Below, one piece after another: positions 3,288 to 30,216 of a stretch of DNA of 32,000 nucleotides. Both the position numbers and the translations under genes were made by a program. Origin of the DNA: Phyllobacterium brassicacearum. GTDB lineage: Bacteria; Pseudomonadota; Alphaproteobacteria; Rhizobiales; Rhizobiaceae. Under the pieces are notes generated by a model, which was given only the letters and a program-made list of their open reading frames with translations, ran no database searches and was not told where the DNA came from. Position 1 is the stretch's first letter. Each line of letters begins with the position of its first letter. The DNA lies in contig NZ_PGGO01000033.1 in NCBI RefSeq assembly GCF_003010955.1, positions 1 to 32,000 of the forward strand. The letters are read 5' to 3'.

Positions 3288-3301
3288 TTGCGCTGGCGCA
3301 A
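3288..3301. promoter_or_regulatory. FNR/NnrR-type box TTGCG-CTGG-CGCAA (perfect palindromic half-sites)
   Basis: Read directly from the 113-nt divergent cobO/ubiD intergenic region. The centre is 72 nt from the cobO ATG and 41.5 nt from the ubiD-like ATG. Confidence 0.6.
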
Positions 3302-3335
3302 AGACGTACTGATTTTATTGCGGCAAACAGCTTCG

Positions 3336-4847: not shown

Positions 4848-5422
4848 CACCTCATCATGTTGTGGTCGCGGCCACAGGAGCTTCTGGTGCTGCAATACCA
4901 TTGAGAATCTTGGAACGCCTCGCCACGACCACTGCGGTAGAGACACATCTGGTTGTTTCCGACGCTGCACGGCGGACGTTTCAGTACGAGGTTGGGCAGG
5001 ATGCGGTTGAGCGGGCCGTTTCTTTGGCGTCACGCAGTTACCTGATCAGTGACGTCGGCGCAGCTATCGCAAGCGGCTCATTTCCGACCTCTGGCATGAT
5101 TGTCGCCCCGTGCTCGATGCGGACGTTGGCAGGGATCGCCGCGGGCCTGTCGGACAATCTGATTACGCGAGCGGCAGATGTTCACCTCAAGGAGCGCCGT
5201 CGATTGGTCCTCATGACGCGGGAAACACCCTTACACCTCGGTCATCTGCGTAATATGTGTGCTGTCACCGAAATGGGTGCCGTCATTATGCCGCCCGTAC
5301 CCGCCTTCTACAATTTGCCGCAAACGGTGGCGGAGATTGTTGACCATTTTGCTGCACGGGCGATCGATCTGTTGAACCTTCCCATCGCGCGCCAATCCGC
5401 TGTCTGGCACGGTCAGTTGTGA
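4844..5422 (+). CDS. ubiX: UbiX-type flavin prenyltransferase, 192 aa
   Basis: VVAATGASGA Rossmann-like start, APCSMRTLAGIA, and LKERRRLVLMTRETPL motifs. The ATG at 4844 overlaps the ubiD-like stop (ATGA). Confidence 0.9.
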   Translation: MTPHHVVVAATGASGAAIPLRILERLATTTAVETHLVVSDAARRTFQYEVGQDAVERAVSLASRSYLISDVGAAIASGSFPTSGMIVAPCSMRTLAGIAAGLSDNLITRAADVHLKERRRLVLMTRETPLHLGHLRNMCAVTEMGAVIMPPVPAFYNLPQTVAEIVDHFAARAIDLLNLPIARQSAVWHGQL

Positions 5423-6279: not shown

Positions 6280-6444
6280 TCAATCGAGATAAGATTCGGA
6301 AGGCCTGTCATCGTCATAGAGAATGCGCTCGGACGCGCCGTCCAAATCCTCGTATTGCCCGTTTTTGAGAGACCAAAGGAACAGCAGCAGACCTGCCAGA
6401 CCGAGCGCTAACGAAATAGGGATCAGGTAGAAGAAGTCTTTCAT
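6280..6444 (-). CDS. ccoS: cbb3 oxidase maturation protein FixS/CcoS, 54 aa (not in the ORF track)
   Basis: My own translation is MKDFFYLIPISLALGLAGLLLFLWSLKNGQYEDLDGASERILYDDDRPSESYLD*, a typical CcoS. Its ATG overlaps the fixI stop (ATGA at 6441-6444). Confidence 0.85.
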   Translation of the reverse strand: MKDFFYLIPISLALGLAGLLLFLWSLKNGQYEDLDGASERILYDDDRPSESYLD

Positions 6445-8702
6445 TCTGCCAATCGCCCCGACTGTATCTTTAGGCCCAAAGGCTTTGTCTTTCCCTGCAT
6501 TGGCTCACCCCTGAGCCTCAGCGCGTTGGCTACAACGACTATGGATGACAGTGACATCGCCAGCGCCGCGACAAAGGGAGTTGCATGACCAAGGATCGCG
6601 ACCGGAAGCGCCACGACGTTGTACCCGATGGCGATGACGAAGTTCTGCCGGATCAACTTGCCGGCATCCCGGGAAACCCGGTAGGCGAGAAACACCGTGT
6701 CGAGACTGTCTTGTAGAAAGACGAAGTCGGCATTGTTGCGGCCGACATCAGCAGCGCTGGCGGGGGCCATCGAAACGTGCGCAGCCATGAGAGCGGGCGC
6801 GTCGTTCAAGCCGTCACCAACCATCAGGACCTTGCGGCCCTGGTCGGACAGCACTTTGATGCGCTCAAGTTTGCCACCGGGAAGGATGCAGGCAGTGTAC
6901 TCGGAAATGCCGAGTTCGAGGGCGATTTCCCTCACGGCAGATACGCTGTCCCCCGAAACAATCTCCATAGAAATTCCGGCGCTGCGCAGTTTGTCAACGA
7001 GCGCTCTCGCCCCGGGGCGCAACTTGTCCGAAAATGCGAAGACGGCAACCTGGCGTCCGTCGCATGCAAGAACGGTGTCCGGTGATGGGTTTTCCGTCCC
7101 GCACGCGAACAGTGCGCGTCCCAGTCGATAAACCTTGCCTTGGGAAATGCCCTCCAGGCCGAGGCCGGGGTACTCTTTTACGTCGTCGAAGCGATACGAG
7201 TTTCCGGCACTTGTCCTTGCGGCTGCTGATATAGCCTGGGCATTCGGATGTCGGGAGTGCGATGCAAGTCCGGTGGCGATGGAAAGCGCATCCCGGTCGA
7301 TCAGATCAATATTGGTGACTTGCAACTGTCCCAGTGTGAGCGTGCCGGTCTTGTCGAAGACAACGGTGTCGATCTCGTTGAGCCGCTCCATGGCCGATCC
7401 ATCCTTGACCATAATCCGGCTTTCGAACAGACGGCGCGCGGCCACGACCTGCACCATCGGGACTGCGAGCCCGAGCGCACAGGGGCAGGTGATGATCAAA
7501 ACGGCAATGGCAATGGTTGCTGCCTGGTGAAAGTCCCCTTGCACGATCATCCAGCCGAGGAAGCTCAGCAGCGATGTCAGATGCACCGCCGGCGCGTAAA
7601 GACGGGATGCACGGTCGGCGATGCGTCGATAAACCGATTTGCCGGATTCGGCTGCTTCCATCAGCCGGATCGTTTCGGCGAGAAACGAGTCTTCGGCATT
7701 CGCTGTGGCGACGGAGGTCAACGATCCAGTGATATTGAGTGTCCCTGCCTGGAGGGCTACTCCCGATTCAACTTTGCGCGGGGCGCTTTCGCCTGTTACT
7801 AGCGAGAAATCGACGTCGGAAATCCCCTTGATGACCTCGCAGTCGACCGGAACGCGTTCGCCGGCGGTAAGCAGCAGGCGAGTCCCTGGCTTGATCTCTT
7901 TTAACGGTAGGTATTCGTATTCGCCGTCGGCTTTGATCGTCATCGCGCCGCGCGACGAAAGTTGCGCAAGGCCCTTGATCGCCGTCCGCGTGCGCTCCCG
8001 CATGACGTAGTCCAGCGTCCGTCCTATCAGAAGGAAAAACACCAGCGATGTGGCAGCATCGAAGTAGGCGTATTCGTAGCCGTGGTAACTGTCGTAGACG
8101 CTGAGGGCGAATGCCGCGGCGATGCCGATTGAAATTGGCACGTCCATGTTGGTTTGTCCGTGCTTGAGGGCACGCCACGCCGACTGATAAAATACGCGTC
8201 CGGAGTAGAGAAGCGTGGGGAGGGCAATGCCAGCGCAAATCCAGTGAAGGATGTCCCGCGTTGATCCTTCCGCGCCCGACCAGACCGAAACAGACAATGA
8301 CATTATGTTCATCGAGCCAAATGCGGCGACCGCCAGCGCCCTGAGCATCCTCGAAAGTTCACCGTTCGGTTTCGCTTCCTCGGTCGGGTCGAAGAGATGC
8401 CCATCAAAGCCGAGCTCTTTTAGAGCACCAATCGCGTCGGGAGGAGTTCCTCGGCCGGACCAACGCAATGCCAATCTTTTGCTCGAAAGATTGACCCGCA
8501 CGTATTGCACGCCCTCAAGCTTTGCCAGTCCGCGCTCAATTTTGTTGACGCAGCCGCCACAGTGGATCGAAGGCACCGAGATTTCCGTCTGCAAGATGCC
8601 GTCGCCTATGCTGCGGCTTGCCAGCCGGAATTCATCGGCCAGCGGACTTGAGGCCTGAACGGTATCGGTGGATACAATCATCGTTGCAGACGTGCAGGTC
8701 AT
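6441..8702 (-). CDS. ccoI: Copper-translocating P1B-type ATPase FixI/CcoI, 753 aa
   Basis: N-terminal HMA motif CGGC, TM CPC (ITCPCALG), DKTGTLT phosphorylation site and GDGLNDAP hinge. It lies between cbb3 genes and ccoS. Confidence 0.92.
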   Translation of the reverse strand: MTCTSATMIVSTDTVQASSPLADEFRLASRSIGDGILQTEISVPSIHCGGCVNKIERGLAKLEGVQYVRVNLSSKRLALRWSGRGTPPDAIGALKELGFDGHLFDPTEEAKPNGELSRMLRALAVAAFGSMNIMSLSVSVWSGAEGSTRDILHWICAGIALPTLLYSGRVFYQSAWRALKHGQTNMDVPISIGIAAAFALSVYDSYHGYEYAYFDAATSLVFFLLIGRTLDYVMRERTRTAIKGLAQLSSRGAMTIKADGEYEYLPLKEIKPGTRLLLTAGERVPVDCEVIKGISDVDFSLVTGESAPRKVESGVALQAGTLNITGSLTSVATANAEDSFLAETIRLMEAAESGKSVYRRIADRASRLYAPAVHLTSLLSFLGWMIVQGDFHQAATIAIAVLIITCPCALGLAVPMVQVVAARRLFESRIMVKDGSAMERLNEIDTVVFDKTGTLTLGQLQVTNIDLIDRDALSIATGLASHSRHPNAQAISAAARTSAGNSYRFDDVKEYPGLGLEGISQGKVYRLGRALFACGTENPSPDTVLACDGRQVAVFAFSDKLRPGARALVDKLRSAGISMEIVSGDSVSAVREIALELGISEYTACILPGGKLERIKVLSDQGRKVLMVGDGLNDAPALMAAHVSMAPASAADVGRNNADFVFLQDSLDTVFLAYRVSRDAGKLIRQNFVIAIGYNVVALPVAILGHATPFVAALAMSLSSIVVVANALRLRGEPMQGKTKPLGLKIQSGRLAE

Positions 8703-8706
8703 GTCG

Positions 8707-9495
8707 TTAATCCGGATCTCGCATGGTCAGGTAAGCATGCCAGGTGGCATGACCGAGCAGCGGGAAAATGATGACGAAGCCGATCATCCCCGAAAGCAAG
8801 GCCATGATGGTAAGACTGAGGACGATCACCCCCCACATCAGCATGACTGGCAGATTGTTCCAGACAATGGAGATGCTGGTTCCCATGGCGGTGAACGCGT
8901 CGAACTTCTTGTCCAGCACCATGGGGATCGAGAAGACGCTGATGGCAAAGGCGAAGGCCGCGAAAATCCCCCCGATTGCCACTCCGACCACAAGCATCGC
9001 TACCCCGATCGGCGTGCCGAACAGCATGGGGAGGATATGATCCATGCCCGGGAACGGCCGCCATCCAAAAAACAGCGCGTAGAGGAGCACTGCAGCCCGC
9101 ATCCACAGGAGCATCAGGCCCAACAGGACGGCCCCGACGAAAAGCACATGTTGGCTGGTACCGCGTTCCGGTATGAGCATTGACGCCAAGGTGACAGGCA
9201 AGCCTTTGGTCAATCGCTGGCTTTTGACGTAGAGGCCGGTTGCGAGCGCCGGGCCGACGACCAGAAAGCCGGCAAGTGCCGGGAAGAAGGCAAAATCCAG
9301 TGAATAGAACAGCAATCCGGCCGCGATCGCCATAGAGATTAAAGCAACTCCCGTGCCGTAGACCAGGCTGGGGAAGGGTACGGTCCACAGATCCCTCCAG
9401 CCTTCGACAAACCAGCCAAATGCCTGGTCCGCGGACACATGTCTGTTTCGGTCGATTGCCTTCGGAAGAGGCGGAACGGTCTCTGGAATTTTCAT
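8707..9495 (-). CDS. DUF2189-type integral membrane protein, 262 aa
   Basis: The N-terminal FGWFVEGWRDLW...SLVYG followed by 5-6 TM segments matches my recollection of DUF2189/COG5473. The ATG at 9495 has GGGAAAGG upstream. The stop is 4 nt before the fixI start. Confidence 0.7.
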   Translation of the reverse strand: MKIPETVPPLPKAIDRNRHVSADQAFGWFVEGWRDLWTVPFPSLVYGTGVALISMAIAAGLLFYSLDFAFFPALAGFLVVGPALATGLYVKSQRLTKGLPVTLASMLIPERGTSQHVLFVGAVLLGLMLLWMRAAVLLYALFFGWRPFPGMDHILPMLFGTPIGVAMLVVGVAIGGIFAAFAFAISVFSIPMVLDKKFDAFTAMGTSISIVWNNLPVMLMWGVIVLSLTIMALLSGMIGFVIIFPLLGHATWHAYLTMRDPD

Positions 9496-9541
9496 GGGAT
9501 GCCTTTCCCTATCTGGGCTGAAGAACCGAAACGCGCTTCTT

Positions 9542-9730
9542 TCAACATGAGGAGTTCGCCGCGCGATATGTCCCGGGCTGATGGCTCGCATCTTTCATGT
9601 GTCCGACGCAATCCGGCTGCGAGAGAAATGCCACATACACCAGGTGGGCGTTGGCGAGGACAACCACCGCCGCTGCCGACGCCACCACCAACGCCACAAG
9701 GAACCTTGGCCTGGAAATCAATTCACTCAT
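9542..9730 (-). CDS. 62-aa single-TM protein with a Cys/His-rich C-terminal tail (unknown family)
   Basis: The ATG overlaps the ccoP stop (ATGA at 9727-9730) and a perfect AGGAGG sits 6 nt upstream. One N-terminal TM helix is followed by QPDCVGHMKDASHQPGTYRAANSSC. Confidence 0.65.
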   Translation of the reverse strand: MSELISRPRFLVALVVASAAAVVVLANAHLVYVAFLSQPDCVGHMKDASHQPGTYRAANSSC

Positions 9731-10635
9731 GATCCGCCTCCTGCCGCCGCTGTCGTGCCGCCCTCTTTTCTCAGATCAAGAACATAGAGCGTGATGATCT
9801 TGATGTCGGCGGGTGTGAGCCGCGCACCCCAGCTCGGCATATGGCCTTGACGGCCGTGGAAGATGCTCTCGTAAATATCCTTCCGCTCCCCACCGTAGAT
9901 CCAGTAGTCGTCGGTGAGATTCGGAGCGCCGACCTCGACCAGCCCCTTGGCGTCGTCGCCGTGACAGGCTACGCACGTTGTAGCGAAGAGTTCTTTGCCC
10001 TTCGCAACATCTTCTTTGTTTGTGTCGGTGACCGTGGCCGGTCCGGACAGTGATTTGACGAAGCCGGCCAGAAGCGAAACCTGATCCTGCGTCAACGTCC
10101 CGTCACGGCCAAAGGCAAGCATTTGCGATACGCGGGTGTTCGGATCGGTGCCGTTGATGCCCGCCGTCACAGTTTGTAGGACGGTCTCCGGATCGTTGCC
10201 CCAAAGCATCGGCGACTGAACAATATTGGGAAAGCCCTTGTTGCCCTTTGCGTTGGCTCCGTGACAGGCCGCGCAATTGTCCCCGAAAAGCGTGAGACCG
10301 TTTTCACGGACCGTGCGCATCAAGTCAGGATCCGACTGGATCTGCGTCAGATCTTCCTTTTCGATACGGGCCATCCAGCCTGCACGCTCTCGCGCAGCGT
10401 CGGCAACGGACTTGGCGACGACCTCCTTTTGATCGACACCGAGCAGGCCTTTGAAGTATCCTGATCCGTATGGCCAGCTCGGCATGAGCAATGTCCAGGC
10501 CAAGGCGAAAATCCCCAGCGTGATCAGGAAGAAATAGACGGGCTTGGGAACTGGCGTGTTGAGCTCCTTGATGCCGTTCCATTCATGCCCCGTCGTTTGG
10601 TGACCAGTGAAAGGATCGCGCTCGCCTACTGACAT
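9727..10635 (-). CDS. ccoP: cbb3-type cytochrome c oxidase subunit P (dihaem c), 302 aa
   Basis: N-terminal HEWNGIKELN motif, one TM, and two CxxCH sites (CAACH, CVACH). Confidence 0.93.
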   Translation of the reverse strand: MSVGERDPFTGHQTTGHEWNGIKELNTPVPKPVYFFLITLGIFALAWTLLMPSWPYGSGYFKGLLGVDQKEVVAKSVADAARERAGWMARIEKEDLTQIQSDPDLMRTVRENGLTLFGDNCAACHGANAKGNKGFPNIVQSPMLWGNDPETVLQTVTAGINGTDPNTRVSQMLAFGRDGTLTQDQVSLLAGFVKSLSGPATVTDTNKEDVAKGKELFATTCVACHGDDAKGLVEVGAPNLTDDYWIYGGERKDIYESIFHGRQGHMPSWGARLTPADIKIITLYVLDLRKEGGTTAAAGGGS

Positions 10636-10799
10636 GGCCTGTCCTCTTCATCGGACACCACTGCGGCAGCCGCCTGTGCAAATTGCTCCTTGTTCGATGG
10701 CCAGTACGCGTAGACCAACACGCCGATCGACATGGCGATCAGGTAGAACAGGCCGAAAGACTTGGAGAAACCCGTGAGCATTTCATGATCGATTGTCAT
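10626..10799 (-). CDS. ccoQ: cbb3-type oxidase subunit Q, 57 aa (not in the ORF track)
   Basis: My own translation is MTIDHEMLTGFSKSFGLFYLIAMSIGVLVYAYWPSNKEQFAQAAAAVVSDEEDRPCQ*. It has one TM, starts 1 nt after the ccoO stop and overlaps the ccoP start by 10 nt. Confidence 0.75.
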   Translation of the reverse strand: MTIDHEMLTGFSKSFGLFYLIAMSIGVLVYAYWPSNKEQFAQAAAAVVSDEEDRPCQ

Positions 10800-10800
10800 G

Positions 10801-11532
10801 TCACTCCACCTCGTTCTGTGTTGATTGATGGGCGGCGTCGGTCAGGTGGCCGAGGATTTGCAGATAAGCAACGAGCGCATCCATCTCAGTGACCGCGCCT
10901 TGATTGCCGTCAAACAGGCTGACATCGGTCTTGTCGCCATATCGGGTGGTCACGCCCGCAGCCAGATCAGTATCGGGATTTGCCTGACCGATGGCGTCGC
11001 TTGATGCGTTCGAAACCATCTCATCGGTATAGGGCACACCCACCGCTCGTAGCGCCGCCAAGTGTTCGCCGAGATCGCCAGTCTTGAGCTGTTTGCTCGA
11101 CAACCAGCGATAGGCGGGCATGTTGGATTCGGCAACAACATCTCGCGGGTTGGTGAGGTGCGCGACATGCCAGTCATTCGAGTACTTTCCGCCGACCCGG
11201 GCAAGATCGGGTCCGGTCCTCTTGGAGCCCCAGAGCATCGGGTGGTCGTATTTCGACTCCACTGCCAGGGAATAGGGGCCGTACCGTTCCACCTCGTCCC
11301 GCAACGTGCGGATCATCTGGGAATGGCAGGCATAGCAGCCCTCTCGCATGTAGATGTTGCGTCCTGCGACCTCGAGCGGCGTGTAGACCCGCATGTCCGG
11401 CGCTTTTTCCACGGTCTCGTCGATCGTGAACAACGGAGCGATCTCGATTAGGCCGCCGATACTTGCTACACCGATGATTGCGAGGACAAAGCCGATCGCA
11501 CTTCGCTCAAGTCGGTAGTGTAAGTTGAACAT
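10801..11532 (-). CDS. ccoO: cbb3-type oxidase subunit O (monohaem c), 243 aa
   Basis: N-terminal TM, a CYACH haem site and a conserved GPDLARVGGKYS motif. Confidence 0.93.
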   Translation of the reverse strand: MFNLHYRLERSAIGFVLAIIGVASIGGLIEIAPLFTIDETVEKAPDMRVYTPLEVAGRNIYMREGCYACHSQMIRTLRDEVERYGPYSLAVESKYDHPMLWGSKRTGPDLARVGGKYSNDWHVAHLTNPRDVVAESNMPAYRWLSSKQLKTGDLGEHLAALRAVGVPYTDEMVSNASSDAIGQANPDTDLAAGVTTRYGDKTDVSLFDGNQGAVTEMDALVAYLQILGHLTDAAHQSTQNEVE

Positions 11533-11535
11533 TGT

Positions 11536-13194
11536 CTATTCTCCGGCTTGTGCGGTTAGTGTGGCCGGCTGCAAGGCCATCGGGATGTCCGAGGCGGATT
11601 CGGCCGCGACCGGCACCGGGATTCGGATGGTCATCCAGATGTTGTAGAGGGCAAGGACAGCGCCAGCCAGGAACAGTAGGCCACCGAACGCACGGGCGAT
11701 GTAATAGGGATGCATGGCGACAAGCGAATCAACGAAGGAATAGTTCAAGGTCCCGCTATCGTTGTATGTCCGCCACATCAGCCCCTGGATAACCCCTGAG
11801 TTCCACATGGCGAAGACGTAGACGACCGTTCCAGAGAGGGCGAGCCAGAAGTGCCACTCAACCAGTTTGGGGGAGTAAAGGGCCGGACGTTTCCACAGCC
11901 ACGGTGTCAGCGCGTAGAGCGAACCGTAGGTAATCATGGCAACCCAGCCAAGCGCGCCGGCATGGACATGGCCGACGGTCCAGTCGGTATAATGCGACAG
12001 CGAGTTGACGGCGCGGATCGCCATGAAGGATCCTTCAAAGGTGGAGAGTCCATAAAAGATTGCTGCCAGCATCATGAAACGCAGGACCGCATCATCGCGG
12101 ACCTTGTGCCAGGCCCCGTTGAGCGTCAGCAGAGCATTTCCGGCAGATGCCCAGGACGGAACCAGCAACACCACCGAGAACGCCATGCCGAGCGTCTGAA
12201 CCCAGTGAGGAAGCGCCGTATAGTGAAGGTGATGCGAGCCTGCCCACATGTACATGAAGGTGATGCCCCAGAAACTGATGATCGACGTTCTGTAGGAATA
12301 GATCGGACGACCCGCGCGTTTCGGCAGGTAATAATACATCATGCCGAGGAAGCCGGCGGTCAGGAAGAAGGCCACCGCATTGTGGCCGTACCACCATTGC
12401 GTCATCGCATCCTGAACGCCCGAGAACAGCGAATAGCTCTTGGCGTGTCCGAGTGAAACGGGGACAGCAAGGTTGTTGACGATGTGCAGGAGAGCGACAA
12501 CCAGGATGAAGGCCATGTAGTACCAGTTGGCGACATAAATGTGCGGTTCCTTGCGACGCATCAGCGTACGGATATAGATCGAAAAATAGACGACCCAGAC
12601 GATGACCAACCAGATATCGGCATACCATTCAGGTTCGGCATATTCCTTGGATTGGCTAACACCCATGAGGTAGCCGCTGGCCGCCAGGACACAGAACAGA
12701 TTGTAGCCGAAAAGGACAAACCACGGACTGAATTGATCCGGCAGGCGAGCACGAGTCGTTCGTTGCAGGACATGCAGCGACGTGGCGATCAGGGCGTTAC
12801 CGCCGAATCCGAAGATGACGCCGCTGGTATGCACAGGACGAAGTCGACCGAAGCTTGCCCATTCTGCGTCAACCGTCAGCTCCGGCCAGGCGAGGAGGGC
12901 GGCGACCCAAACGCCAACGAGCATGCCGACAACGCCCCATATTAAAGTCAGGACAATGCCGACCTTGCTGGGATCGTCATAATATTCGGACAATCGGGCG
13001 GGAGAGGGCTCCGGTGCACCATAGGCACGCAGAAGCGCTATGACACCAGCCACGGCGCTCAGTGCAATGATCCAGCCATGCGTGCCGATGAGATCGCCGC
13101 GACCGGCAGCGGCCATCGCCACTCCGAAGCAAATCAAGATGAGGAAGGTGAAGGCCGCAACGATGCGCTCGGTGCCGGTCAATTGTGAAATCAT
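11536..13194 (-). CDS. ccoN: cbb3-type oxidase catalytic subunit N, 552 aa (alternative GTG start at 13254)
   Basis: Haem-copper oxidase motifs WWYGHNAV, GSHHLHY and HVHAGALGW. ATG at 13194. A GTG at 13254 overlaps the stop of the upstream small ORF (GTGA), so the start is uncertain. Confidence 0.93.
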   Translation of the reverse strand: MISQLTGTERIVAAFTFLILICFGVAMAAAGRGDLIGTHGWIIALSAVAGVIALLRAYGAPEPSPARLSEYYDDPSKVGIVLTLIWGVVGMLVGVWVAALLAWPELTVDAEWASFGRLRPVHTSGVIFGFGGNALIATSLHVLQRTTRARLPDQFSPWFVLFGYNLFCVLAASGYLMGVSQSKEYAEPEWYADIWLVIVWVVYFSIYIRTLMRRKEPHIYVANWYYMAFILVVALLHIVNNLAVPVSLGHAKSYSLFSGVQDAMTQWWYGHNAVAFFLTAGFLGMMYYYLPKRAGRPIYSYRTSIISFWGITFMYMWAGSHHLHYTALPHWVQTLGMAFSVVLLVPSWASAGNALLTLNGAWHKVRDDAVLRFMMLAAIFYGLSTFEGSFMAIRAVNSLSHYTDWTVGHVHAGALGWVAMITYGSLYALTPWLWKRPALYSPKLVEWHFWLALSGTVVYVFAMWNSGVIQGLMWRTYNDSGTLNYSFVDSLVAMHPYYIARAFGGLLFLAGAVLALYNIWMTIRIPVPVAAESASDIPMALQPATLTAQAGE

Positions 13195-13250
13195 TTTGGT
13201 TGCCCCCGCCTTAATGAATTGCCAGTGCCTCTGACCATGAACATTTCGAC

Positions 13251-13406
13251 TCACTGATTGAGAAAAAGCACGGCCGCGATTGCGACCGAAAAGACCACGG
13301 CCGTCATCGCGCCGGCACGCTGCAAAACGTCCATGCGGTTGAGAACGACCGCAAAGACGATGATTATTGGCGTGGCGACGATCAGTCCGATCTGTGCGTC
13401 GGTCAT
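13251..13406 (-). CDS. 51-aa predicted two-TM small membrane protein preceding ccoN (unknown family)
   Basis: ATG at 13406 with ACGGAG 7 nt upstream. The sequence is MTDAQIGLIVATPIIIVFAVVLNRMDVLQRAGAMTAVVFSVAIAAVLFLNQ. It lies between the FNR box and ccoN. The longer track ORF begins inside the box. Confidence 0.45.
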   Translation of the reverse strand: MTDAQIGLIVATPIIIVFAVVLNRMDVLQRAGAMTAVVFSVAIAAVLFLNQ

Positions 13407-13455: not shown

Positions 13456-13469
13456 TTGATCCAGGTCAA
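13456..13469. promoter_or_regulatory. FNR/FixK-type box TTGAT-CCAG-GTCAA shared by the divergent cco operon and norE
   Basis: Matches 9/10 of TTGAT-N4-ATCAA. The centre is 56 nt from the small-ORF ATG (13406) and 79 nt from the norE ATG (13542). Confidence 0.7.
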
Positions 13470-19196: not shown

Positions 19197-20549
19197 TCAT
19201 GCTGCCTGGCTGTGCGTCCGGGTGGACTCTTCAATATAGGCATCGAAAGCGGCCGCGACCGCCCGGATGACGAAGCGATGATCCTTTTTCACCAGGACGC
19301 AGCCGTTGTCGATCTTAACCACACCGTCATCTTCCAACATCTTCAGCCGCCTGTTGCCCTCGAGCAGTACGGCGGGATCGAAACCGTGCGTGGCGGCAAT
19401 CGATGGAATGTCTGCGCTGAAATCGCACATCAGCCTCTCGATTACCTGCGCGCGAAACTTGTCGTCTCCGGTAAAACGATAGCCCTTCACCGTGGCGAGA
19501 TCTCCGGACCTGATGTACTGGGCAAAACGTCCTGGTGCGACTTCGTTCTGCACATATCCGTCCACCATCCGACCGATTGCTGACGCACCGAACCCGATCA
19601 TCGTCTCGCAATTGTCGGTGGTGTAGCCTTGAAAGTTCCGTCTCAACTTCCCGGCATCTTGGGCAATCACGAGATCGTCGGTCTTCAGGGCGAAGTGGTC
19701 GAGGCCGACCTGATGGTATCCGGCCGAGACGAGCGTTTCGCTGATGGCCTCAGCCTGGGCGTTCCGCCCGGCGGTGTCGGCGAGGGCAGTTTCGTCGATC
19801 ATCCTCTGATGCTTCTTGAACGATGGGATGTGGGCATATCCAAACACCGAGAAGCGGTCTGGCTTCATGGCGATGGCAGCCTTGGTTGTTTCGACACAGG
19901 ATCGCTCCGTCTGGTGCGGCAGCCCGTAGATCAGGTCGAAATTGATGCGGCGCACCCCGCTCTTGCGAAGGTCGCGAACTGCCTGGAGCGTCTGTTGTTC
20001 GGTCTGGATTCGGTTGATGGCTTTTTGGACAACGGGATCAAACGTCTGCACGCCGAGGCTTGCACGGGTGACCCCTCCTGCTCCGAGTGCCGCCGCCATG
20101 TCGTTGGTCAGCCGGCGCGGATCGATCTCTACGGCGATGTTTGTTTGGTCGGAAACGTCGAACCACTGACGCAGCAGCGCCGTCAACTGCAGAAACTCTT
20201 CGGGTTGGATTATGGTGGGCGTGCCCCCGCCGAAATGAATCTCACCGATCGGCAATGGTTTGGGAGCGCGTTGGGCAACCATGTCGATTTCACTCTTCAA
20301 GAAATGAAGATAGTCGCTGATCGGCTGATCCTGCTGGCTGATGGTCGTGTGACAACCACAGTACCAGCACATGGATCTGCAAAAAGGGATGTGCAGGTAT
20401 AGCGAGACCGGATCGTTGATAGGAATGTTCTCCAACCAATCTCCATAGGTTCCCTTGCCGATGGCCGGGGAAAACCGCGGGGCGGTCGGGTAACTTGTGT
20501 AGCGAGGCAGTCGGGCTTTGCCGTACTTTCTCAAAATCTCCGGGTTCAT
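19197..20549 (-). CDS. hemN: Oxygen-independent coproporphyrinogen III oxidase (radical SAM HemN), 450 aa
   Basis: PRYTSYPTA motif and radical SAM CRSMCWYCGC. ATG at 20549 with AGGAA upstream. The track ORF adds 70 unsupported N-terminal residues. Confidence 0.92.
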   Translation of the reverse strand: MNPEILRKYGKARLPRYTSYPTAPRFSPAIGKGTYGDWLENIPINDPVSLYLHIPFCRSMCWYCGCHTTISQQDQPISDYLHFLKSEIDMVAQRAPKPLPIGEIHFGGGTPTIIQPEEFLQLTALLRQWFDVSDQTNIAVEIDPRRLTNDMAAALGAGGVTRASLGVQTFDPVVQKAINRIQTEQQTLQAVRDLRKSGVRRINFDLIYGLPHQTERSCVETTKAAIAMKPDRFSVFGYAHIPSFKKHQRMIDETALADTAGRNAQAEAISETLVSAGYHQVGLDHFALKTDDLVIAQDAGKLRRNFQGYTTDNCETMIGFGASAIGRMVDGYVQNEVAPGRFAQYIRSGDLATVKGYRFTGDDKFRAQVIERLMCDFSADIPSIAATHGFDPAVLLEGNRRLKMLEDDGVVKIDNGCVLVKKDHRFVIRAVAAAFDAYIEESTRTHSQAA

Positions 20550-20612
20550 GAGACGTTCCTGATCTATGTGTGACGGTGGCGTCAAAAGTAGGTGTTTCAG
20601 TCTCCGGGGTCT

Positions 20613-20626
20613 TTGCGCGAGATCAA
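20613..20626. promoter_or_regulatory. FNR/NnrR-type box TTGCG-CGAG-ATCAA upstream of hemN
   Basis: The centre is 70 nt from the hemN ATG, which implies a leader of about 29 nt with class II geometry. Confidence 0.65.
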
Positions 20627-20658
20627 CAACGAGTTGCCAAAGCCATTCTCTGAATTGT

Positions 20659-20672
20659 TTGCGCTGCCTCAA
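20659..20672. promoter_or_regulatory. FNR/NnrR-type box TTGCG-CTGC-CTCAA upstream of the DUF2249 operon
   Basis: The centre is 105 nt upstream of the ATG at 20771. This is the second box in the same 221-nt divergent intergenic region. Confidence 0.55.
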
Positions 20673-20770
20673 GTTTCCGCGACCGTCTCCGATGTAGGAA
20701 TCGTGTGGTCCGGACCAGCTTTGGCCATGCATTCCGGATTTTCTTGCAACCGGCCGCATGAGAGATCGTC

Positions 20771-21061
20771 ATGGTAGATACAGCCACCGAAAAGGAACAC
20801 GTCCTGGATGTGCGCACGCTTGCGCCCCACGTGCGTCACTCCACTATTTTCACACTCATCGACGCGCTGCCCATGGGAGCATCGCTCACCATCATCAGCG
20901 ACCATCCTCCACGTCCGCTGCACTATCAGCTTGAAACGAAGTTTCCCGGGCAGTTCTCGTGGGATTATCTCGAAGAGGGTCCAGAGGAGTGGCGCGTTTC
21001 AATTGGAAGACTCACCGCCGCCGCCGTCGACACACATGAATGCACCTGCGGCGGACACTAA
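20771..21061 (+). CDS. DUF2249 domain protein with a Cys/His C-terminal tail, 96 aa
   Basis: LDVRTLAPHVRHSTIFTLIDALPMGASLTIISDHPPRPLHYQL...WDYLEEGPEEWRVSIGR matches the DUF2249 pattern as I recall it. The tail is THECTCGGH. Confidence 0.75.
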   Translation: MVDTATEKEHVLDVRTLAPHVRHSTIFTLIDALPMGASLTIISDHPPRPLHYQLETKFPGQFSWDYLEEGPEEWRVSIGRLTAAAVDTHECTCGGH

Positions 21062-21092
21062 CCTGCGGACATTCTGACCGGAGATTGATATT

Positions 21093-22439
21093 ATGCCCGG
21101 AGCGGCGCTGTCCCGCTGGACCATGACCTACTTTGCTGCTGCACTCTTGTTCCTCATTCTTGGAGAGACAATGATGGTTGCGGGCTACGGGTTTCCTTCA
21201 GCGCCGCTCAGGGCACCCGAAACCTTGATGCTTGTCCACATCGTCGCCATTGGCTGGTTGACTTTGCTCATGCTGGGAGCGCTTTTGCAATTTGTGCCTG
21301 TGTTGGTGGGACGATCACTTCGTGCGCAGCGTTTGGCATTGCCGGCACTGCTGCTGATCCTCGTCGGACTTCTGTGTCTGGAGGCAGGTTTTGCCGCTCT
21401 TGCCGGTATGGTCCCGCTCTACACCTCTGATCTGGCTGCGGGAGCGGCCGCCCTGGTTCTGGGCGTTGCGATGGCAGTGATGATCATCGGTCTGACGCTT
21501 TGGCAAGCACGGCCTTTAACGGCGCCGGCCCGTTTTGTTGCAATCGGCATAGGATGCCTCGTGGTCACCGCGATGCTTGGAGGAGCGTTCGCTCTTGAAC
21601 TGTCCGGAATTGCAGAAAACGAAATCTTCTCTCGGCTCGATCTGAACGGATTGTCGATCCACGCCGTCCTCGGTCTTGGTGGTTGGATGAGTTTTACCGC
21701 AATCGGAGTCAGCTATCGCCTGCTGATGATGTTCATGTTGTCACCGGACAGCGCCGCACGCGTTGACCGCGCAGTGTTGTGGATCGGTGCGGGTGCTTTG
21801 ATGCTCGTCGCTGCGGGAGTCCCGTTCATCATTGCGTTTGCGGCACCCTTGACCGCAAGCCTGACGATTGCGGGGATACTTGGCGTTGTGGTTGTCGGGC
21901 TCTATGTAAGCGACGTTGTCCGCATCTACCGTAAGCGTGTGCGCAAAACAGTCGAACTCAACAGCTCGGCCAGTGTGGGTGCCTACGGTGCACTGGTTGC
22001 TTCTGCAGCGCTCCTGGCCATCGTTTATTTTGACCATGGCGATTACGCAGCGGCCGCGTTGACATACGCTTTCGTCTTTGGCTGGTTGACCGGGTTGGGA
22101 CTTGCCCAGCTCTACAAGATCATTCCCTTTCTCACCTGGCTTGAGTGCTATGGGCCCGTCCTGGGAAAATCACCCACACCGCGTGTGCAGGACCTGGTTC
22201 GGGAGAAGGGTGCAAGCGTCTGGTTTGTGATCTACTATGCAAGCGTTGCTGCGGGGACAATCTGCATTCTTTCGGCACAGGCAAACCTCTTCCGCGGCAC
22301 TTGTCTCGTCCAGCTCTTGGCCACGCTCGTTATCGTCGCACAATACGTGAGGGCCCGCTGCCTTGCCGACGTGGCACCTGCACTGCAATTGCCCCACGGG
22401 GCGCGGCGACCGAACCTGTTCTTGTCACGTTCGTCATGA
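21093..22439 (+). CDS. Uncharacterised polytopic membrane protein (about 12 TM), 448 aa
   Basis: About 12 hydrophobic segments. Two similar His-containing TM motifs are present (LVHIVAIGW...GALLQFVP and SIHAVLGLGGW...). It starts 31 nt after the previous gene, and I recognise no named family. Confidence 0.75.
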   Translation: MPGAALSRWTMTYFAAALLFLILGETMMVAGYGFPSAPLRAPETLMLVHIVAIGWLTLLMLGALLQFVPVLVGRSLRAQRLALPALLLILVGLLCLEAGFAALAGMVPLYTSDLAAGAAALVLGVAMAVMIIGLTLWQARPLTAPARFVAIGIGCLVVTAMLGGAFALELSGIAENEIFSRLDLNGLSIHAVLGLGGWMSFTAIGVSYRLLMMFMLSPDSAARVDRAVLWIGAGALMLVAAGVPFIIAFAAPLTASLTIAGILGVVVVGLYVSDVVRIYRKRVRKTVELNSSASVGAYGALVASAALLAIVYFDHGDYAAAALTYAFVFGWLTGLGLAQLYKIIPFLTWLECYGPVLGKSPTPRVQDLVREKGASVWFVIYYASVAAGTICILSAQANLFRGTCLVQLLATLVIVAQYVRARCLADVAPALQLPHGARRPNLFLSRSS

Positions 22440-22449
22440 GGAGACGCAA

Positions 22450-22983
22450 ATGAACCAACAGTCCCATGAACTCGATGTCCGTCCGATCCTGCGGAGCGGC
22501 GGGGAACCCTTCCAGGCGATCATGAAGGCCGTGGCGGACCTGAAGCCCGGTCAGGGATTGAGGCTCCTCGCCACCTTCCGCCCGGAGCCGCTCTTCCGCG
22601 TGATGGAGGGACGTGGGTTTACCAGCGTGGCCCGTGAAATCGACGGCGGAGACTGGGAGGTCCTGTTCACGCCCAGGGTTGCCGCCGAACCTCCCGTCGA
22701 CGTGTCGACAAACGCGGAGATGCCGCAGCTCTGGCCCGATCCAGACACCAGTCTGGACCTCACAGATCTCGATCCACCGGAACCGATGGTTCGGATCCTG
22801 GCCGCCACAGAACAGATGGAGCCGGGTAGGGTTCTCTTCGCACTGTTGTCCCGGGAGCCGCTGTTTCTTTTTCCCGAGTTGACCCGTCGGCATCATCAGT
22901 GGGTCGGGAGTTTCGACGATACCGGAGAAGCCTATCGAATCCTCATCCGCATTGGTACAAGGACGGAAAACAACAATGGATGA
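22450..22983 (+). CDS. Tandem DUF2249 domain protein, 177 aa
   Basis: Two DUF2249-like halves (LDVRPILRSGGEPFQAIMKAV...DWEVLF and LDLTDLDPPEPMVRILAAT...AYRILIR). A strong GAGGAG sits 7 nt upstream of the ATG at 22450. The track ORF start at 22363 lies inside the upstream gene. Confidence 0.75.
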   Translation: MNQQSHELDVRPILRSGGEPFQAIMKAVADLKPGQGLRLLATFRPEPLFRVMEGRGFTSVAREIDGGDWEVLFTPRVAAEPPVDVSTNAEMPQLWPDPDTSLDLTDLDPPEPMVRILAATEQMEPGRVLFALLSREPLFLFPELTRRHHQWVGSFDDTGEAYRILIRIGTRTENNNG

Positions 22984-23296
22984 AGCCGGGATTGCATCGC
23001 TTCGATCCTCGGTGCGGGAATCGCTGAAGATCATACTCGATCCCGAACTTGGCGAAAACATCGTCGACCTTGGGTTGATCTATGGGCTTGACGTGGCTGC
23101 CAATGGAAATGTTCGTGTCACAATGACAACTACCACGAAGGCATGCCCGGCAACGGGTTTCCTTCAGGAGGCAGTGAAGTTACACATCTCCGGAGTGCCA
23201 GGTGTGAGTGCTGTACAAGTCGATCTTACATACGAGCCACAATGGTCGCCCAAATTGATCATGGGCGAGGCGCGTACTTTTTTTACAAGTCGATGA
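22976..23296 (+). CDS. DUF59 / SufT-like metal-sulfur cluster assembly family protein, 106 aa
   Basis: ILDPELGENIVDLGLIY...VRVTMTTTTKACPATG...VQVDLTYEPQWSP is the classic DUF59 (MIP18/PaaD-like) pattern, including the conserved Cys. The ATG at 22976 overlaps the preceding gene by 8 nt. Confidence 0.8.
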   Translation: MDEAGIASLRSSVRESLKIILDPELGENIVDLGLIYGLDVAANGNVRVTMTTTTKACPATGFLQEAVKLHISGVPGVSAVQVDLTYEPQWSPKLIMGEARTFFTSR

Positions 23297-23382
23297 CCAT
23301 CGACCTGAGCAAAATGCGACGACATGATCGATTTGCCCGAAGAGCGGCACAACCCCCGATCACACACGCCTCGTAATGGCAT

Positions 23383-23906
23383 CAGGTCTGGGATCGGGGC
23401 AACAGGAACCGGAGCGCCGGCATTGTTGGACTCATCGCCCGAAACATCGATAACCCGTCAGCTTGCTCGAAATCGATTGGTTCGAATAAGCTCACGCGCG
23501 AACGCCAGCGCGTTCGAGATCGATGTAAAGGATATCCTTCTTATTGGTTGCCGACGCAAGTCTTCAGCAAACCGAGCGGCAGACTCTGAACCGTCAATCA
23601 GAGTCCACGGCACAACCTGAACAGCCGCGCCACCGCACTCGACGAAGGTCACTGCGATCTTTTTCAGTTGCCCCGCGAGTACCGAACTGACGATCTCAGC
23701 GCTCCGAAAGGCATTTACATAACCTTCCCTTTGAACTTTCTGTTCTTCGATATCCATTGAATAAGAAACATCAACGGCAATGAACAGTTCGAGGTATACG
23801 GGAACAGGATATAGTCCGGCGAAAGTGTGCTTCCGCCCAGAACACAGAACGATGCAGAAGTGCCCATCCCAATTTCATTGCGGAAATCCCGCGCTGCGCT
23901 CCCCAC
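23383..23906 (-). pseudogene. Decayed vWA-like (DUF1194-like) gene with a frameshift, an in-frame TGA and a 3' truncation
   Basis: The minus strand reads ...VYLELFIAVDVSYSMDIEEQKVQREGYVNAFRS...IAVTFVECGG..VVPWTLIDGSESAARFAEDL...SISNALAFAREL..RFRAS*RVIDVSGDESNNAGAPV. The DxSxS MIDAS motif and VIDVSGD..NN are in one frame, interrupted by TGA at 23458-23460. A signal-peptide-like start (MGTSASFCVLGG) is in a different frame, and the C-terminal third is absent. Confidence 0.65.
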
Positions 23907-24093
23907 GGAGCATTTCGGCGTTCACCGGCAAAACTCATTGGCCGTTGAGACTATCAAATTGGTCATCTTCCACAACGCAATGGCAATGAAGTCCTCAAAG
24001 AACGAGTGTTCCACGATCAACCAGCAGAGCCCGTGACGGTGGTATTGGCTCAAAGCAGACCTGATAGGCGGTTGTCACCGCGTTGCTTCCAAT

Positions 24094-26927: not shown

Positions 26928-27872
26928 ATGGCAGCCGCATTGCACCACCGCGAGATTTCCGCATTATCGATCTTCACGCCCATGCTTTTGGTCGTAGCGC
27001 TCGGCGGTCTGAGTGCCGCACAAATTGGTTTGCTCGGGAACAACGCGCCTTCCATGCATGTGAACCCGCCCGAAACAATAACTGTTGCACCACGAGAATT
27101 CTCCTACCGTAGCCACGGGGAGTTCTTCAGGGGCGCGATTGCCGTCGACGGTCCGATCATGACTGTCAGAGCGTCTGCGCTGGAAATCATGAAGTACGAA
27201 GTGACATCGGTTGATTATGCGCGCTGCGTTGCCGACGGTGCCTGCCAGGCCGCTGAACCGGAACACGCCGTTACCGATGGGAAGGTTGCAGTAACGGGTG
27301 TGAGTATCGTTGATGCCCAGGACTATGCGGCATGGCTCAGCAATCGGACGGATGCCACCTGGACCTTGCCAACCGACGAGCAATTGGCGTTTGCTGCCGG
27401 ATCCCGCTTTCCCGACGATGGGCTGGGCGATAGTGCCGACAGCAGGAATCCGGCGATCCGCTGGCTTGCGGACTACGATCGCGAAGCCGCGAGGAAGTCT
27501 GCCGCCAATCCAATTCCGCAGGTGAGTGGATACTTTGGGGAGAATGAGTTCGGTTTGGCAGACTTTGCCGGAAATGTTTGGGAATGGACCACGACCTGTA
27601 ATCGCAGGGTAAATCTTGACCATCCTGGCGCTGCCGATGAGGATTCGTGTGGAGTGTACCTTGCCGTCGGCAAACATCGCTCACCGATGAGCTTCTTTAT
27701 CAGGAATCCAAAGGGTGGAGGTTGTTCAGTAGGCGCTCCGCCCGAAAATCTGGGCTTCCGCCTGGTCCGCGACGGAAATTGGTATGTTCCTTATTTGCAG
27801 TGGTTTAAAAGGACCTTGGGCATTGGTGCAGTGAGCGGCGATGCTGGCGCAACCATAGGACAACGCAATTGA
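26928..27872 (+). CDS. nirV: NirV, formylglycine-generating-enzyme (SUMF1) domain protein, 314 aa
   Basis: N-terminal TM or signal, then an FGE-sulfatase-like core (YEVT..DY..C...GAC, WRLPT-like WTLPTDEQLAFAAG, GNVWEWT, GFRLVRD). ATG at 26928 with TGGAGG upstream. It lies directly downstream of nirK. Confidence 0.85.
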   Translation: MAAALHHREISALSIFTPMLLVVALGGLSAAQIGLLGNNAPSMHVNPPETITVAPREFSYRSHGEFFRGAIAVDGPIMTVRASALEIMKYEVTSVDYARCVADGACQAAEPEHAVTDGKVAVTGVSIVDAQDYAAWLSNRTDATWTLPTDEQLAFAAGSRFPDDGLGDSADSRNPAIRWLADYDREAARKSAANPIPQVSGYFGENEFGLADFAGNVWEWTTTCNRRVNLDHPGAADEDSCGVYLAVGKHRSPMSFFIRNPKGGGCSVGAPPENLGFRLVRDGNWYVPYLQWFKRTLGIGAVSGDAGATIGQRN

Positions 27873-28570
27873 AAATCGACCGGACAATCGTGAAGTCGCT
27901 TCCCCTGTTTGCCAGGATGAACGATGCGGACCTGGACGGGCTTCTCGATTCCGCCACGGCGAAGCGTATCCCGCAAGGGGAAGCGGTGTTCGAACAAGGC
28001 CAGAACGCAGTCTCATTCTTCCTGCTCTTACACGGTCGACTGAAGGTGCTGCAGGTCACAGAGGATGGACAACAGATAATTGTACGGATGGTCCATCCCG
28101 GCGACTTGTTTGGGTTCGCGAAGGCACTGCAACGCACCGATTATCCGGGAACCGCCATGGCTGCCGCCGAAAGCGTGGTCCTTTGTTGGCCGACGGATCT
28201 GTGGCCACAGTTCGTCGAACGTAATCCCAGCCTTGCCGTGACCACCATGCAAACGATTGGTCAGCGCCTGGAAGAAGCCCACACCCGCATCCGTGAGATG
28301 TCGACCCAGGAGGTTGAACGTCGTGTCGCACATGTAGTGACACGCCTCGCAAAACAAGCGGGCAAACAGGAAGGCAGCAGCATTCGGATCGATTTTCCGA
28401 TCACCCGTCAGGATATAGCCGAGATGACTGGCACAACGCTTCATACCGTGTCTCGCATTCTGAGTGCGTGGGAAGCCAAAGGGCTGGTCGAAGGCGGTCG
28501 CCAGAAACTGCTGATCTGCAACCTGGACGGGATCATGCTCTTGGCCAACAGTGCGAAGGACCGCGGTTAG
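27869..28570 (+). CDS. nnrR: Crp/Fnr-family NO-responsive regulator NnrR, 233 aa, TTG start
   Basis: cNMP-binding-like fold without the N-terminal FNR Cys cluster, and an HTH IAEMTGTTLHTVSRILSAWE. The TTG at 27869 overlaps the nirV TGA (TTGA). This start is needed to retain the conserved N-terminal SLPLFARM segment. Confidence 0.85.
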   Translation: MKIDRTIVKSLPLFARMNDADLDGLLDSATAKRIPQGEAVFEQGQNAVSFFLLLHGRLKVLQVTEDGQQIIVRMVHPGDLFGFAKALQRTDYPGTAMAAAESVVLCWPTDLWPQFVERNPSLAVTTMQTIGQRLEEAHTRIREMSTQEVERRVAHVVTRLAKQAGKQEGSSIRIDFPITRQDIAEMTGTTLHTVSRILSAWEAKGLVEGGRQKLLICNLDGIMLLANSAKDRG

Positions 28571-30202: not shown

Positions 30203-30216
30203 TTGCGTGGGATCAA
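30203..30216. promoter_or_regulatory. FNR/NnrR-type box TTGCG-TGGG-ATCAA upstream of pseudoazurin
   Basis: The centre is 80 nt from the ATG at 30290, which implies a leader of about 39 nt. Confidence 0.7.

Follow-up and report, generated by a model that had tools for sequence, protein, structure and literature searches.

In Thermus thermophilus, the operon drpAB is attached to the denitrification cluster and is induced, when oxygen is absent and an N-oxide is present, by a regulator of the Crp family; DrpA is a single DUF2249 domain reported to be periplasmic, and DrpB combines DUF1858 with a tandem DUF2249 and is membrane-associated without transmembrane (TM) segments (PMC6282519). The two proteins alter dnr and nar promoter activity and depend on the Crp-type regulator DnrT, a drpAB mutant makes NarG with nitrate reductase activity at ~10% of the wild type, and the authors of that work propose nitrate sensing (PMC6282519). 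A haloarchaeal DUF2249 is fused to a P-loop Fe-S carrier (Mrp); its gene belongs to a nar operon and is induced during denitrification (PMC11218638). Moreover, COG4309, which is equivalent to DUF2249, was predicted in 2005 to belong to NnrR and NsrR regulons, and the core genes of the nitric oxide (NO) regulon (nnrS, dnrN, hmp and hcp) were found to switch between unrelated NO-responsive regulators (Rodionov et al., PMC1274295). Here we analysed a four-gene operon in a 32,000-nucleotide (nt) stretch of Phyllobacterium brassicacearum DNA, hereafter the window, which encodes a single DUF2249 protein (g1), a membrane protein (g2), a tandem DUF2249 protein (g3) and a DUF59 protein (g4), and found that the COG4309 gene located after norD in Brucella and Agrobacterium is the first gene of this same operon. 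A sequence-only reading of the window had stated that none of the four products has an assigned role in denitrification, a view that these studies correct as far as DUF2249 is concerned.

Membrane proteins comparable to g2 were reportedly described in 2014 by Pei, Li, Kinch and Grishin under the name 'HCO homology' (HCOH; HCO, haem-copper oxidase), as families of 12 TM helices in three units, mostly with two conserved histidines, for which a single haem is said to have been predicted and whose gene contexts are said to be denitrification and NO detoxification. To our knowledge, these families are biochemically uncharacterised apart from NnrS. The latter has been called a haem-copper-containing membrane protein, and the regulation of its gene switches between NnrR, NsrR, NorR and DNR in different bacteria (PMC1274295); it is needed for the NO resistance of V. 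cholerae (PMC3345576). The 2014 paper is cited in PMC11218638 as the source for a link between DUF2249 and the HCO superfamily. The parts already known are COG4309 (2005), the HCO homologues (2014), DrpAB (2018) and haloarchaeal DUF2249 induction (2024), and those added here are the modelled fold of g2 with its two-histidine signature and topology, a fixed triad of g2, g3 and g4, a promoter footprint, an apparent switch of regulator from NnrR to NsrR, and a fusion of Nfu_N to the DUF59 protein. We are highly confident of the descriptive part taken as a whole, namely that the genes form one operon, that they contain a conserved triad with an oxidase-fold g2, and that the operon is preceded by an FNR/NnrR-type box here and by a predicted NsrR operator elsewhere.

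The operon, its membrane protein and its soluble partners

All four open reading frames (ORFs) lie on the + strand and are separated by gaps of +31, +10 and -8 nt in the window sequence. The g2/g3 junction reads TGA-GGAGACGCAA-ATG, g3 and g4 overlap in ATGGATGA, and GGAG/AGGA ribosome sites are present, a pattern that indicates translational coupling of g2, g3 and g4; the four genes form one translationally coupled operon. The sequence-only reading had proposed an operon with this spacing, and its coordinates, junctions and ribosome sites were confirmed. Its DUF2249, tandem DUF2249 and DUF59 calls passed the Pfam thresholds in the hidden Markov model check, and the HECTCGGH tail of g1 and the conserved cysteine of g4 are present as described.

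The membrane protein g2 (CU102_26260 of P. brassicacearum, 100% identity) gave no family match against Pfam and NCBIfam. However, an AlphaFold2 (AF2) model built from 38 homologues (pLDDT 88, pTM 0.90) has 12 helices, and the best 50 Foldseek matches against the PDB were all catalytic subunits of HCOs or nitric oxide reductases (NORs), with TM-scores of 0.49-0.69, including NorB (4xyd, E = 2e-5, TM-score 0.61), the cbb3 subunit CcoN (0.62) and aa3/bo3 oxidases (up to 0.69). A profile of 55 g2 relatives, with identities down to 23%, matched PDB CcoN chains at 6e-6, and the alignments recurred in three registers, each offset by one four-helix unit, because the fold has an internal three-fold repeat. 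Alignment of the g2 family with a NorB alignment by hhalign gave 378 in-register columns (E = 2.3e-4) and unit-level matches at E = 1.8e-5 to 5.8e-5; a shallow g2 alignment gave nothing against single NnrS or NorB sequences, and the NorB signal needed deeper alignments on both sides. The g2 family reached a probability of 2.8% or less against a 46-sequence NnrS alignment, and no NnrS (PF05940) match was found in Pfam. Pfam COX1 (PF00115) matched 11 of the 55 relatives, one of them above the gathering score (P0241, 64 vs 34.8 bits), and did not match g2 itself; some databases label g2 homologues 'cbb3-type cytochrome c oxidase subunit I'. The long 'fusion' relatives (P0204, P0178, P0151, P0153 and P0155) contained no informative extra domain, with a weak DUF2871 match only. 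The model and the profiles together indicate that g2 has the fold of the HCO/NorB catalytic subunit, with two conserved histidines, which replaces the earlier description of a membrane protein whose family was not recognised.

Only two polar residues are invariant among the 55 sequences, H49 (TM2) and H190 (TM6). The positive-inside rule gives an N-in topology (K+R 14 vs 2), and each histidine is 3-7 residues away from the periplasmic end of its helix, at a depth typical of oxidase haem ligands. In register with NorB (hhalign), H49 pairs with the TM2 haem-b histidine and H190 lies one helical turn from the TM6 FeB/CuB histidine; in rotated registers, the two fall on the low-spin haem ligands of TM10 and TM2, the TM2 match alone not being significant. 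The TM7 histidine pair and the TM10 HxH motif are missing throughout the family, and g2 keeps two of the six canonical metal-ligand histidines (TM2, TM6, two in TM7 and two in TM10), both near the outer face. Given that only these two are left, g2 probably lacks a binuclear centre and uses H49 and H190 to bind one b-type haem, and would be a clear case of an oxidase catalytic fold reused without its catalytic centre. Y325 was considered as a third (TM10) ligand and rejected, as the site varies (Y/F/H/L/A/V) across the wider family. The cytoplasmic loops 281-290 (KRVRKTVELN) and 357-370 are conserved and positively charged.

For the soluble partners, no signal peptide was found by inspection of g1, g3 and g4. 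The g1 protein scored 93 bits against Pfam DUF2249 (PF10006; cut-off 29.5), with D13, R15, R22, H23, D44 and H45 as conserved residues, and ends in a Cys/His-rich tail (...DTHECTCGGH), which we take to resemble the CxxCGC nickel site of HypB; CxC(C)CG..H tails were found in 47 of 63 g1 orthologues. Neither sequence nor profile searches found a relative of g1 among solved structures. A single-sequence AF2 model of g1 had a pLDDT of 60 and non-significant fold matches, SirA/TusA-like folds being among the weak ones, and its predicted order of beta-alpha-beta-alpha-beta-beta agrees with a TusA-like fold and shows nothing more. The g3 protein scored 115 bits against DUF2249 over two stretches (cut-off 29.5), and its second domain also matched TusA (1.6e-9) and aligned with the E. 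coli TusA/YhhP structure. Both g3 domains lack the His pair seen in g1, and where TusA has the catalytic Cys of its CPxP motif, g3 has D-P (LDPPEP) and g1 lacks the residue, which excludes a persulfide relay; g3 appears to be a cytoplasmic tandem DUF2249 with a TusA fold and no active Cys. The g4 protein scored 62 bits against DUF59 (PF01883, FeS_assembly_P; cut-off 23.5), keeps the TTTKACP cysteine (TTTxxCP motif, C57) that is found in at least 95% of 75 orthologues, and aligned over its full length with PDB TM0487 (2e-17). Its scores against NCBIfam equivalog models fell below the cut-offs (SUF_assoc, 88.8 vs 143.4 bits; other SufT/PaaD models, 67.3 vs 202.6 and 72.1 vs 180). These features point to g4 as a cytoplasmic DUF59 adaptor for Fe-S trafficking, of the SufT/PaaD type.

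Conservation and regulation

We then compared the 80 best-scoring species-level loci from GTDB, out of at least 579 hits. The gene g3 directly follows g2 in 78 of these loci, g4 is present in 76, and g1 is present in 67 and directly upstream of g2 in 63. Within 10 kb we found nnrR (57 loci), nnrS (46), nirK (44), norB (40) and hemN (32), a divergent hemN being present in 32 loci; 36-40 loci had no nirK or norB within this distance. These co-occurrences bear out the earlier expectation that the set is conserved and linked to nir, nor, nnrS and nnrR genes. In the Rhizobiaceae, Brucellaceae and Phyllobacteriaceae, the operon lies between nor/hemN and nnrS/nirK, and some Brucella-group loci have it immediately after norD, in the same orientation. 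The arrangement is identical on R. etli p42f, where the products are annotated as DUF2249, hypothetical, DUF2249 and 'metal-sulfur cluster assembly factor'.

Eight remote relatives of g2 (28-34% identity), found on metagenome contigs, all share their operon with a DUF59 gene, and six are accompanied by annotated DUF2249 genes. Their neighbours include nosZDF..L-apbE, nosR-Z-D, a Nar-like molybdopterin/Fer4_11/NarJ/EB_dh set and hypEDCF, as well as genes for hemerythrin, Crp/Fnr regulators (inside or beside operons L083, L084 and L088), cupredoxin and NnrS. The conserved triad of g2, g3 and g4 therefore moves as a unit among N-oxide contexts and one hydrogenase-maturation context, and such varied surroundings speak against a NirK- or Nor-specific maturase. 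In the hyp-linked locus (L081, 2452-3313), the DUF59 gene is followed by a COX1-like gene of 151 amino acids (aa), which may represent a single four-helix unit, and by a small ferredoxin gene, with hypE-D-C-F adjoining on the other strand.

Of the 63 loci in which g1 immediately precedes g2, 47 have a g1 with a Cys/His tail (CxCCCG..H or HECTCG.H), an unfused DUF59 protein and no NsrR palindrome 5' of the operon, and eight have a tail-less g1, an Nfu_N-DUF59 fusion and an NsrR site; tail and fusion occur together in none of the 63. In the fusions, the Nfu_N domain is N-terminal on the DUF59 orthologue (Pfam 4.8e-23), and an Rrf2 regulator lies within about 5 kb in six of these loci (L045, L047, L061, L063, L071 and L079), two of which (L045 and L047) also have nnrU. 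The exclusivity is only suggestive, because the two operon types are two clades; tail and fusion would both be metal- or cluster-handling additions. Extra or displaced single-DUF2249 genes were seen several kilobases away (L045, 8736-9050, - strand; Mesorhizobium loci L062, L068 and L072), so the His-type DUF2249 is not always the first gene of the unit.

The 218-nt spacer between hemN and g1 contains two TTG-N8-CAA sites, against ~0.07 expected, at the places where the sequence-only reading had put its two boxes. In the window as a whole there are 19 such sites, compared with 9.5 +/- 3.4 in 100 dinucleotide shuffles, none of which reached 19, and they fall in the promoters of nnrU, fixN/norE, norC, hemN/g1, nnrS (a perfect TTGCGTTTGCGCAA) and nirK. 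The likely start codon of hemN is the ATG at 20552 (- strand), with its box centred ~67 nt upstream, and the centre of the operon box precedes the g1 ATG by ~105 nt. In an alignment of this spacer from 13 taxa (mean identity 52%), the TCTTTG...CAA columns of the hemN-side box are invariant and a CTAG -10-like element lies ~30 nt toward hemN; the TGTTTGC...CAAA columns of the operon-side box are likewise invariant, and a TA(G) is kept at 20695-20696, ~30 nt downstream. Two footprinted boxes with such elements ~30 nt outside each correspond to the geometry of two divergent class-II promoters, with a predicted transcription start of the operon near 20707. Both boxes have a perfect NnrR left half-site (consensus TTGCG-N4-CGCAA) and a FixK-like or degenerate right half, and the sequence cannot separate NnrR from FixK.

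Across the 80 loci, a TTG-N8-CAA box was found within 350 nt 5' of the first gene in 66, against ~0.15 by chance per 380 nt, and FNR/NnrR/FixK-type boxes were footprinted over about ten genera. An NsrR-type palindrome AAGATATATTGACAATATATCTT, which fits the NsrR consensus gATGyAT-N5-ATrCATc of Rodionov et al. (PMC1274295), was found in 13 loci against 0.011 per 380 nt by chance; five loci have both motif types and six have neither, and Rrf2 genes are adjacent in about 18. Regulation of the operon therefore appears to have been kept across lineages while the regulator changed from the NnrR/FixK type to NsrR. We infer that NO, together with low oxygen, induces the operon in the window through NnrR/FixK; the footprint and the switch make the earlier suggestion of wiring to NO/low-oxygen regulators plausible.

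The operon is part of a denitrification island with the order nnrU, fixI-like, fixPON, norE-C-B-Q-D, hemN (divergent), g1-g4, nnrS (convergent), nirK, nirV and a Crp/Fnr regulator, which is a candidate activator for the boxes (Table 1). A block made up of fixNOP and of genes for a fixI-like P-type ATPase and a membrane protein with DUF2189 (6441-13254, - strand) adjoins norE, and a perfect FixK box at 13456-13469 (TTGATCCAGGTCAA) is common to both sides. The ~800-nt spacer between g4 and nnrS (23297-24093) contains a truncated DUF1194 ORF (23458-23757, - strand; Pfam positions 16-114 of 206) that looks like the remnant of a pseudogene; nnrS comes directly after g4 in Ensifer and R. etli. Next to nnrU lie ORFs for a UbiD-like decarboxylase (3288-4847, + strand) and then a UbiX-like flavoprotein (4757-5422, + strand), with a perfect NnrR-type palindrome (TTGCGCTGGCGCAA) at 3288-3301 between cobO and the decarboxylase gene; the two products could form a prenyl-FMN decarboxylase pair whose genes respond to NO or anoxia. 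A further hybrid box (TTGCGTGGGATCAA) was found at 30203-30216, in the region that separates the nnrR-like gene from napC, where no ORF reaches 150 aa. An Rfam search of the window gave no match, nor did a megablast search of the region against PLSDB plasmids; a protein-level search recovered the R. etli and Sinorhizobium orthologues where megablast failed.

Table 1. Positions and strands of the operon, its control region and related features (window coordinates unless stated otherwise)
Feature	Position	Strand	Remarks
hemN, oxygen-independent coproporphyrinogen oxidase	19197..20552	-	Radical_SAM match; divergent, common control region with operon
FNR/NnrR-type box TTGCGcgagATCAA	20613..20626		hemN-proximal; left half NnrR-like, right half FixK-like
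FNR/NnrR-type box TTGCGctgcCTCAA	20659..20672		predicted class-II activator site of operon
g1, single DUF2249, DrpA-like	20771..21061	+	96 aa; Pfam DUF2249 8.5e-27
g2, 12-TM membrane protein, modelled HCO/NorB subunit-I fold	21093..22439	+	448 aa; AF2, Foldseek, profiles
g3, tandem DUF2249, like DrpB core	22450..22983	+	177 aa from ATG; Pfam 1.1e-33
g4, stand-alone DUF59, SufT/PaaD-like	22976..23296	+	106 aa from ATG; Pfam 5.4e-17
Crp/Fnr-family regulator after nirK-nirV (NnrR position)	27869..28570	+	Pfam cNMP_binding and HTH_Crp_2
Nfu_N-DUF59 fusions in other loci	about +1940 to +2600 from g2 start		L045, L047, L058, L061, L063, L071, L073, L079

Possible functions of the module

The functional reading that we favour, tentatively and with a probability of about 0.4, is that the operon encodes an NO-induced, membrane-anchored module that keeps iron and Fe-S cofactors working and is not a dedicated maturase of NirK or Nor. 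Once NO with low oxygen had switched the operon on, g2 would hold its one b-type haem by the two histidines and, having no binuclear centre, would not act as an NO reductase; g1, g3 and g4 would dock on the two charged cytoplasmic loops and the C-tail of g2. The assembly would then keep Fe-S clusters, non-haem iron and possibly haem loaded or repaired when NO is produced or encountered by the cell, which would make the operon a broad aid to NO tolerance, alongside NnrS and YtfE/RIC, instead of the maturase of a single reductase. The link to Fe-S is drawn from the DUF59 protein, the Nfu_N fusion, the haloarchaeal fusion of DUF2249 to a carrier and the low nitrate reductase activity of the Thermus drpAB mutant. 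The earlier idea of a broad care for iron and Fe-S cofactors under NO gains support from the Nfu_N-DUF59 and haloarchaeal Mrp-DUF2249 fusions.

Several points weigh against this reading. The searchable literature yielded no expression, binding or phenotype data for the operon, and searches by locus tag (SMa125x-126x, RHE_PF005x and BMEII0989-92) found nothing useful. Haem binding by g2 is inferential, and H190 maps near the FeB/CuB histidine and not to a second axial ligand, so that two separate sites are possible. The strict coupling of DUF59 and DUF2249 to g2 would fit equally well if the partners were assembly factors of g2 itself, and the frequent adjacency of Crp/Fnr or Rrf2 genes, together with the regulatory phenotype of the Thermus drp mutants, fits signalling. 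Moreover, the 80 loci are a top-scoring subset, mostly Hyphomicrobiales, and are phylogenetically clustered and non-independent. A bolder version of the cofactor-care reading, which we consider rather unlikely, is that g2 is a single-haem relic of the oxidase scaffold that senses or traps NO and drives iron and Fe-S reloading, including that of the cofactors of the NO-sensing regulators themselves; we know of no established cofactor for NnrR-type regulators.

The main rival, signalling of the DrpA/DrpB type, is likewise doubtful in our view. The haem of g2 would sense NO or redox state and the DUF2249 proteins would relay this to the regulator encoded nearby, NnrR in the window and NsrR or other Crp/Fnr proteins in other bacteria, tuning the denitrification genes. 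The pair g1 and g3 does mirror Thermus DrpA/DrpB, which affects the dnr and nar promoters (PMC6282519), although the loss of enzyme activity in the Thermus double mutant could be the primary defect. The gene nnrR occurs within 10 kb more commonly than nirK or norB, and regulator genes stand in or beside three remote operons (Crp/Fnr) and adjacent to the operon elsewhere (Rrf2), but members of a regulon often adjoin their own regulator anyway. In addition, the change of partner regulator family, from Crp/Fnr to Rrf2 with its own Fe-S sensor, would be hard for one dedicated relay, and DUF59 and its fusion with Nfu_N are signs of Fe-S trafficking instead.

It is improbable, in our estimate, that g2 is the end-product that does the work, an NnrS-like haem or metal protein that handles NO, with g1, g3 and g4 as its private cofactor-insertion factors. 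Such arrangements exist, as PaaD, a DUF59 protein, serves phenylacetyl-CoA oxygenase, and NorQ/NorD serve NorB. The DUF59 and DUF2249 genes stay with g2 whatever the surrounding pathway, PaaD models give a score to g4, the His/Asp set of g1 is conserved and its Cys/His tail is of a metal type, and in the alignment H190 is no more than one turn of helix away from the FeB/CuB histidine of TM6. However, three accessories seem excessive for a protein with two conserved ligands, nothing hints at what g2 would catalyse, and there are DUF2249 genes that accompany norB, nar and hemerythrin genes where g2 is absent (PMC1274295, PMC11218638).

A factor dedicated to the maturation or protection of the adjacent NirK, cNor or NnrS, which the sequence-only reading had offered as an option, now appears very unlikely. 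The position of the operon in three families and after norD in some Brucella-group loci would agree with it, and Rodionov et al. suggested a relevance of COG4309 to NO reductase function (PMC1274295), but this option is weakened by the many loci that lack nirK or norB nearby and by the remote members beside nos, Nar-like and hyp clusters; moreover, the copper of NirK is loaded in the periplasm, the operon partners have no signal peptides, and NorQ/NorD already serve NorB. Finally, it is most improbable that g2 is a divergent haem-copper enzyme that catalyses the reduction of NO or oxygen, since its fold, the 'cbb3-type' database names of some homologues and its place in a denitrification island are outweighed by the family-wide absence of the TM7 pair and TM10 HxH, the absence of a subunit II/NorC-like gene from the operon and its failure to match Pfam COX1.

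Denitrifying Alphaproteobacteria and those associated with plants or animals (Sinorhizobium, Rhizobium, Brucella/Ochrobactrum and Mesorhizobium) carry the operon in NO-handling islands, annotated as hypothetical. If the operon protects cofactors or tunes regulators, it would affect NO and nitrous oxide (N2O) release from soils and nodules, the protection of nitrogenase in symbiosis and the survival of the Brucella group under host NO. If the single-haem reading of NO sensing and reloading were true, NO perception, regulator resetting and cofactor repair would be linked in denitrifiers, which could bear on how NnrR-type regulators perceive NO. The same arrangement is carried by R. etli p42f and S. 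meliloti pSymA, which are genetically tractable.

Comparison with known systems

Like TusA/SirA, DUF2249 has the order beta-alpha-beta-alpha-beta-beta, but g1 and g3 lack the catalytic Cys. Compared with SufT, PaaD, TM0487 and the Nfu carriers, g4 matches TM0487 over its full length and keeps the family Cys, whereas it is encoded outside suf or paa operons and stays below the equivalog cut-offs. As in the drpAB operon of Thermus, a single and a tandem DUF2249 protein (g1 and g3) are paired in an operon of a denitrification cluster, a likeness judged from published descriptions and domain layout; in contrast, g3 has no DUF1858, and the Thermus operon has neither an HCO-like membrane gene nor a DUF59 gene.

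Both g2 and NnrS (PF05940), which is encoded 800 nt downstream, are polytopic membrane proteins of NO regulons. The two have no detectable profile similarity, and NnrS is encoded alone, whereas g2 is encoded with DUF2249 and DUF59 genes. To the HCOH families as they are reportedly defined, g2 fits by its 12 TM helices, its two histidines and its denitrification/NO context, and it is a candidate member of one of the named HCOH families. NorB (cNOR), CcoN (cbb3) and CoxI have, as g2 does according to the model, 12 TM helices in three four-helix units with the N terminus inside, and in HCO subunit I the histidines are likewise on inner helices near the periplasmic face (fold match at TM-scores of 0.6-0.69); g2 differs from it in lacking four of the six ligand histidines and, as predicted from this, the binuclear haem-Cu/Fe centre. 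Unlike the HCO and NOR enzymes, the operon encodes no NorC, CcoO or CoxII partner, and the partners that it provides for its oxidase-like membrane protein are cytoplasmic DUF2249 and DUF59 proteins.

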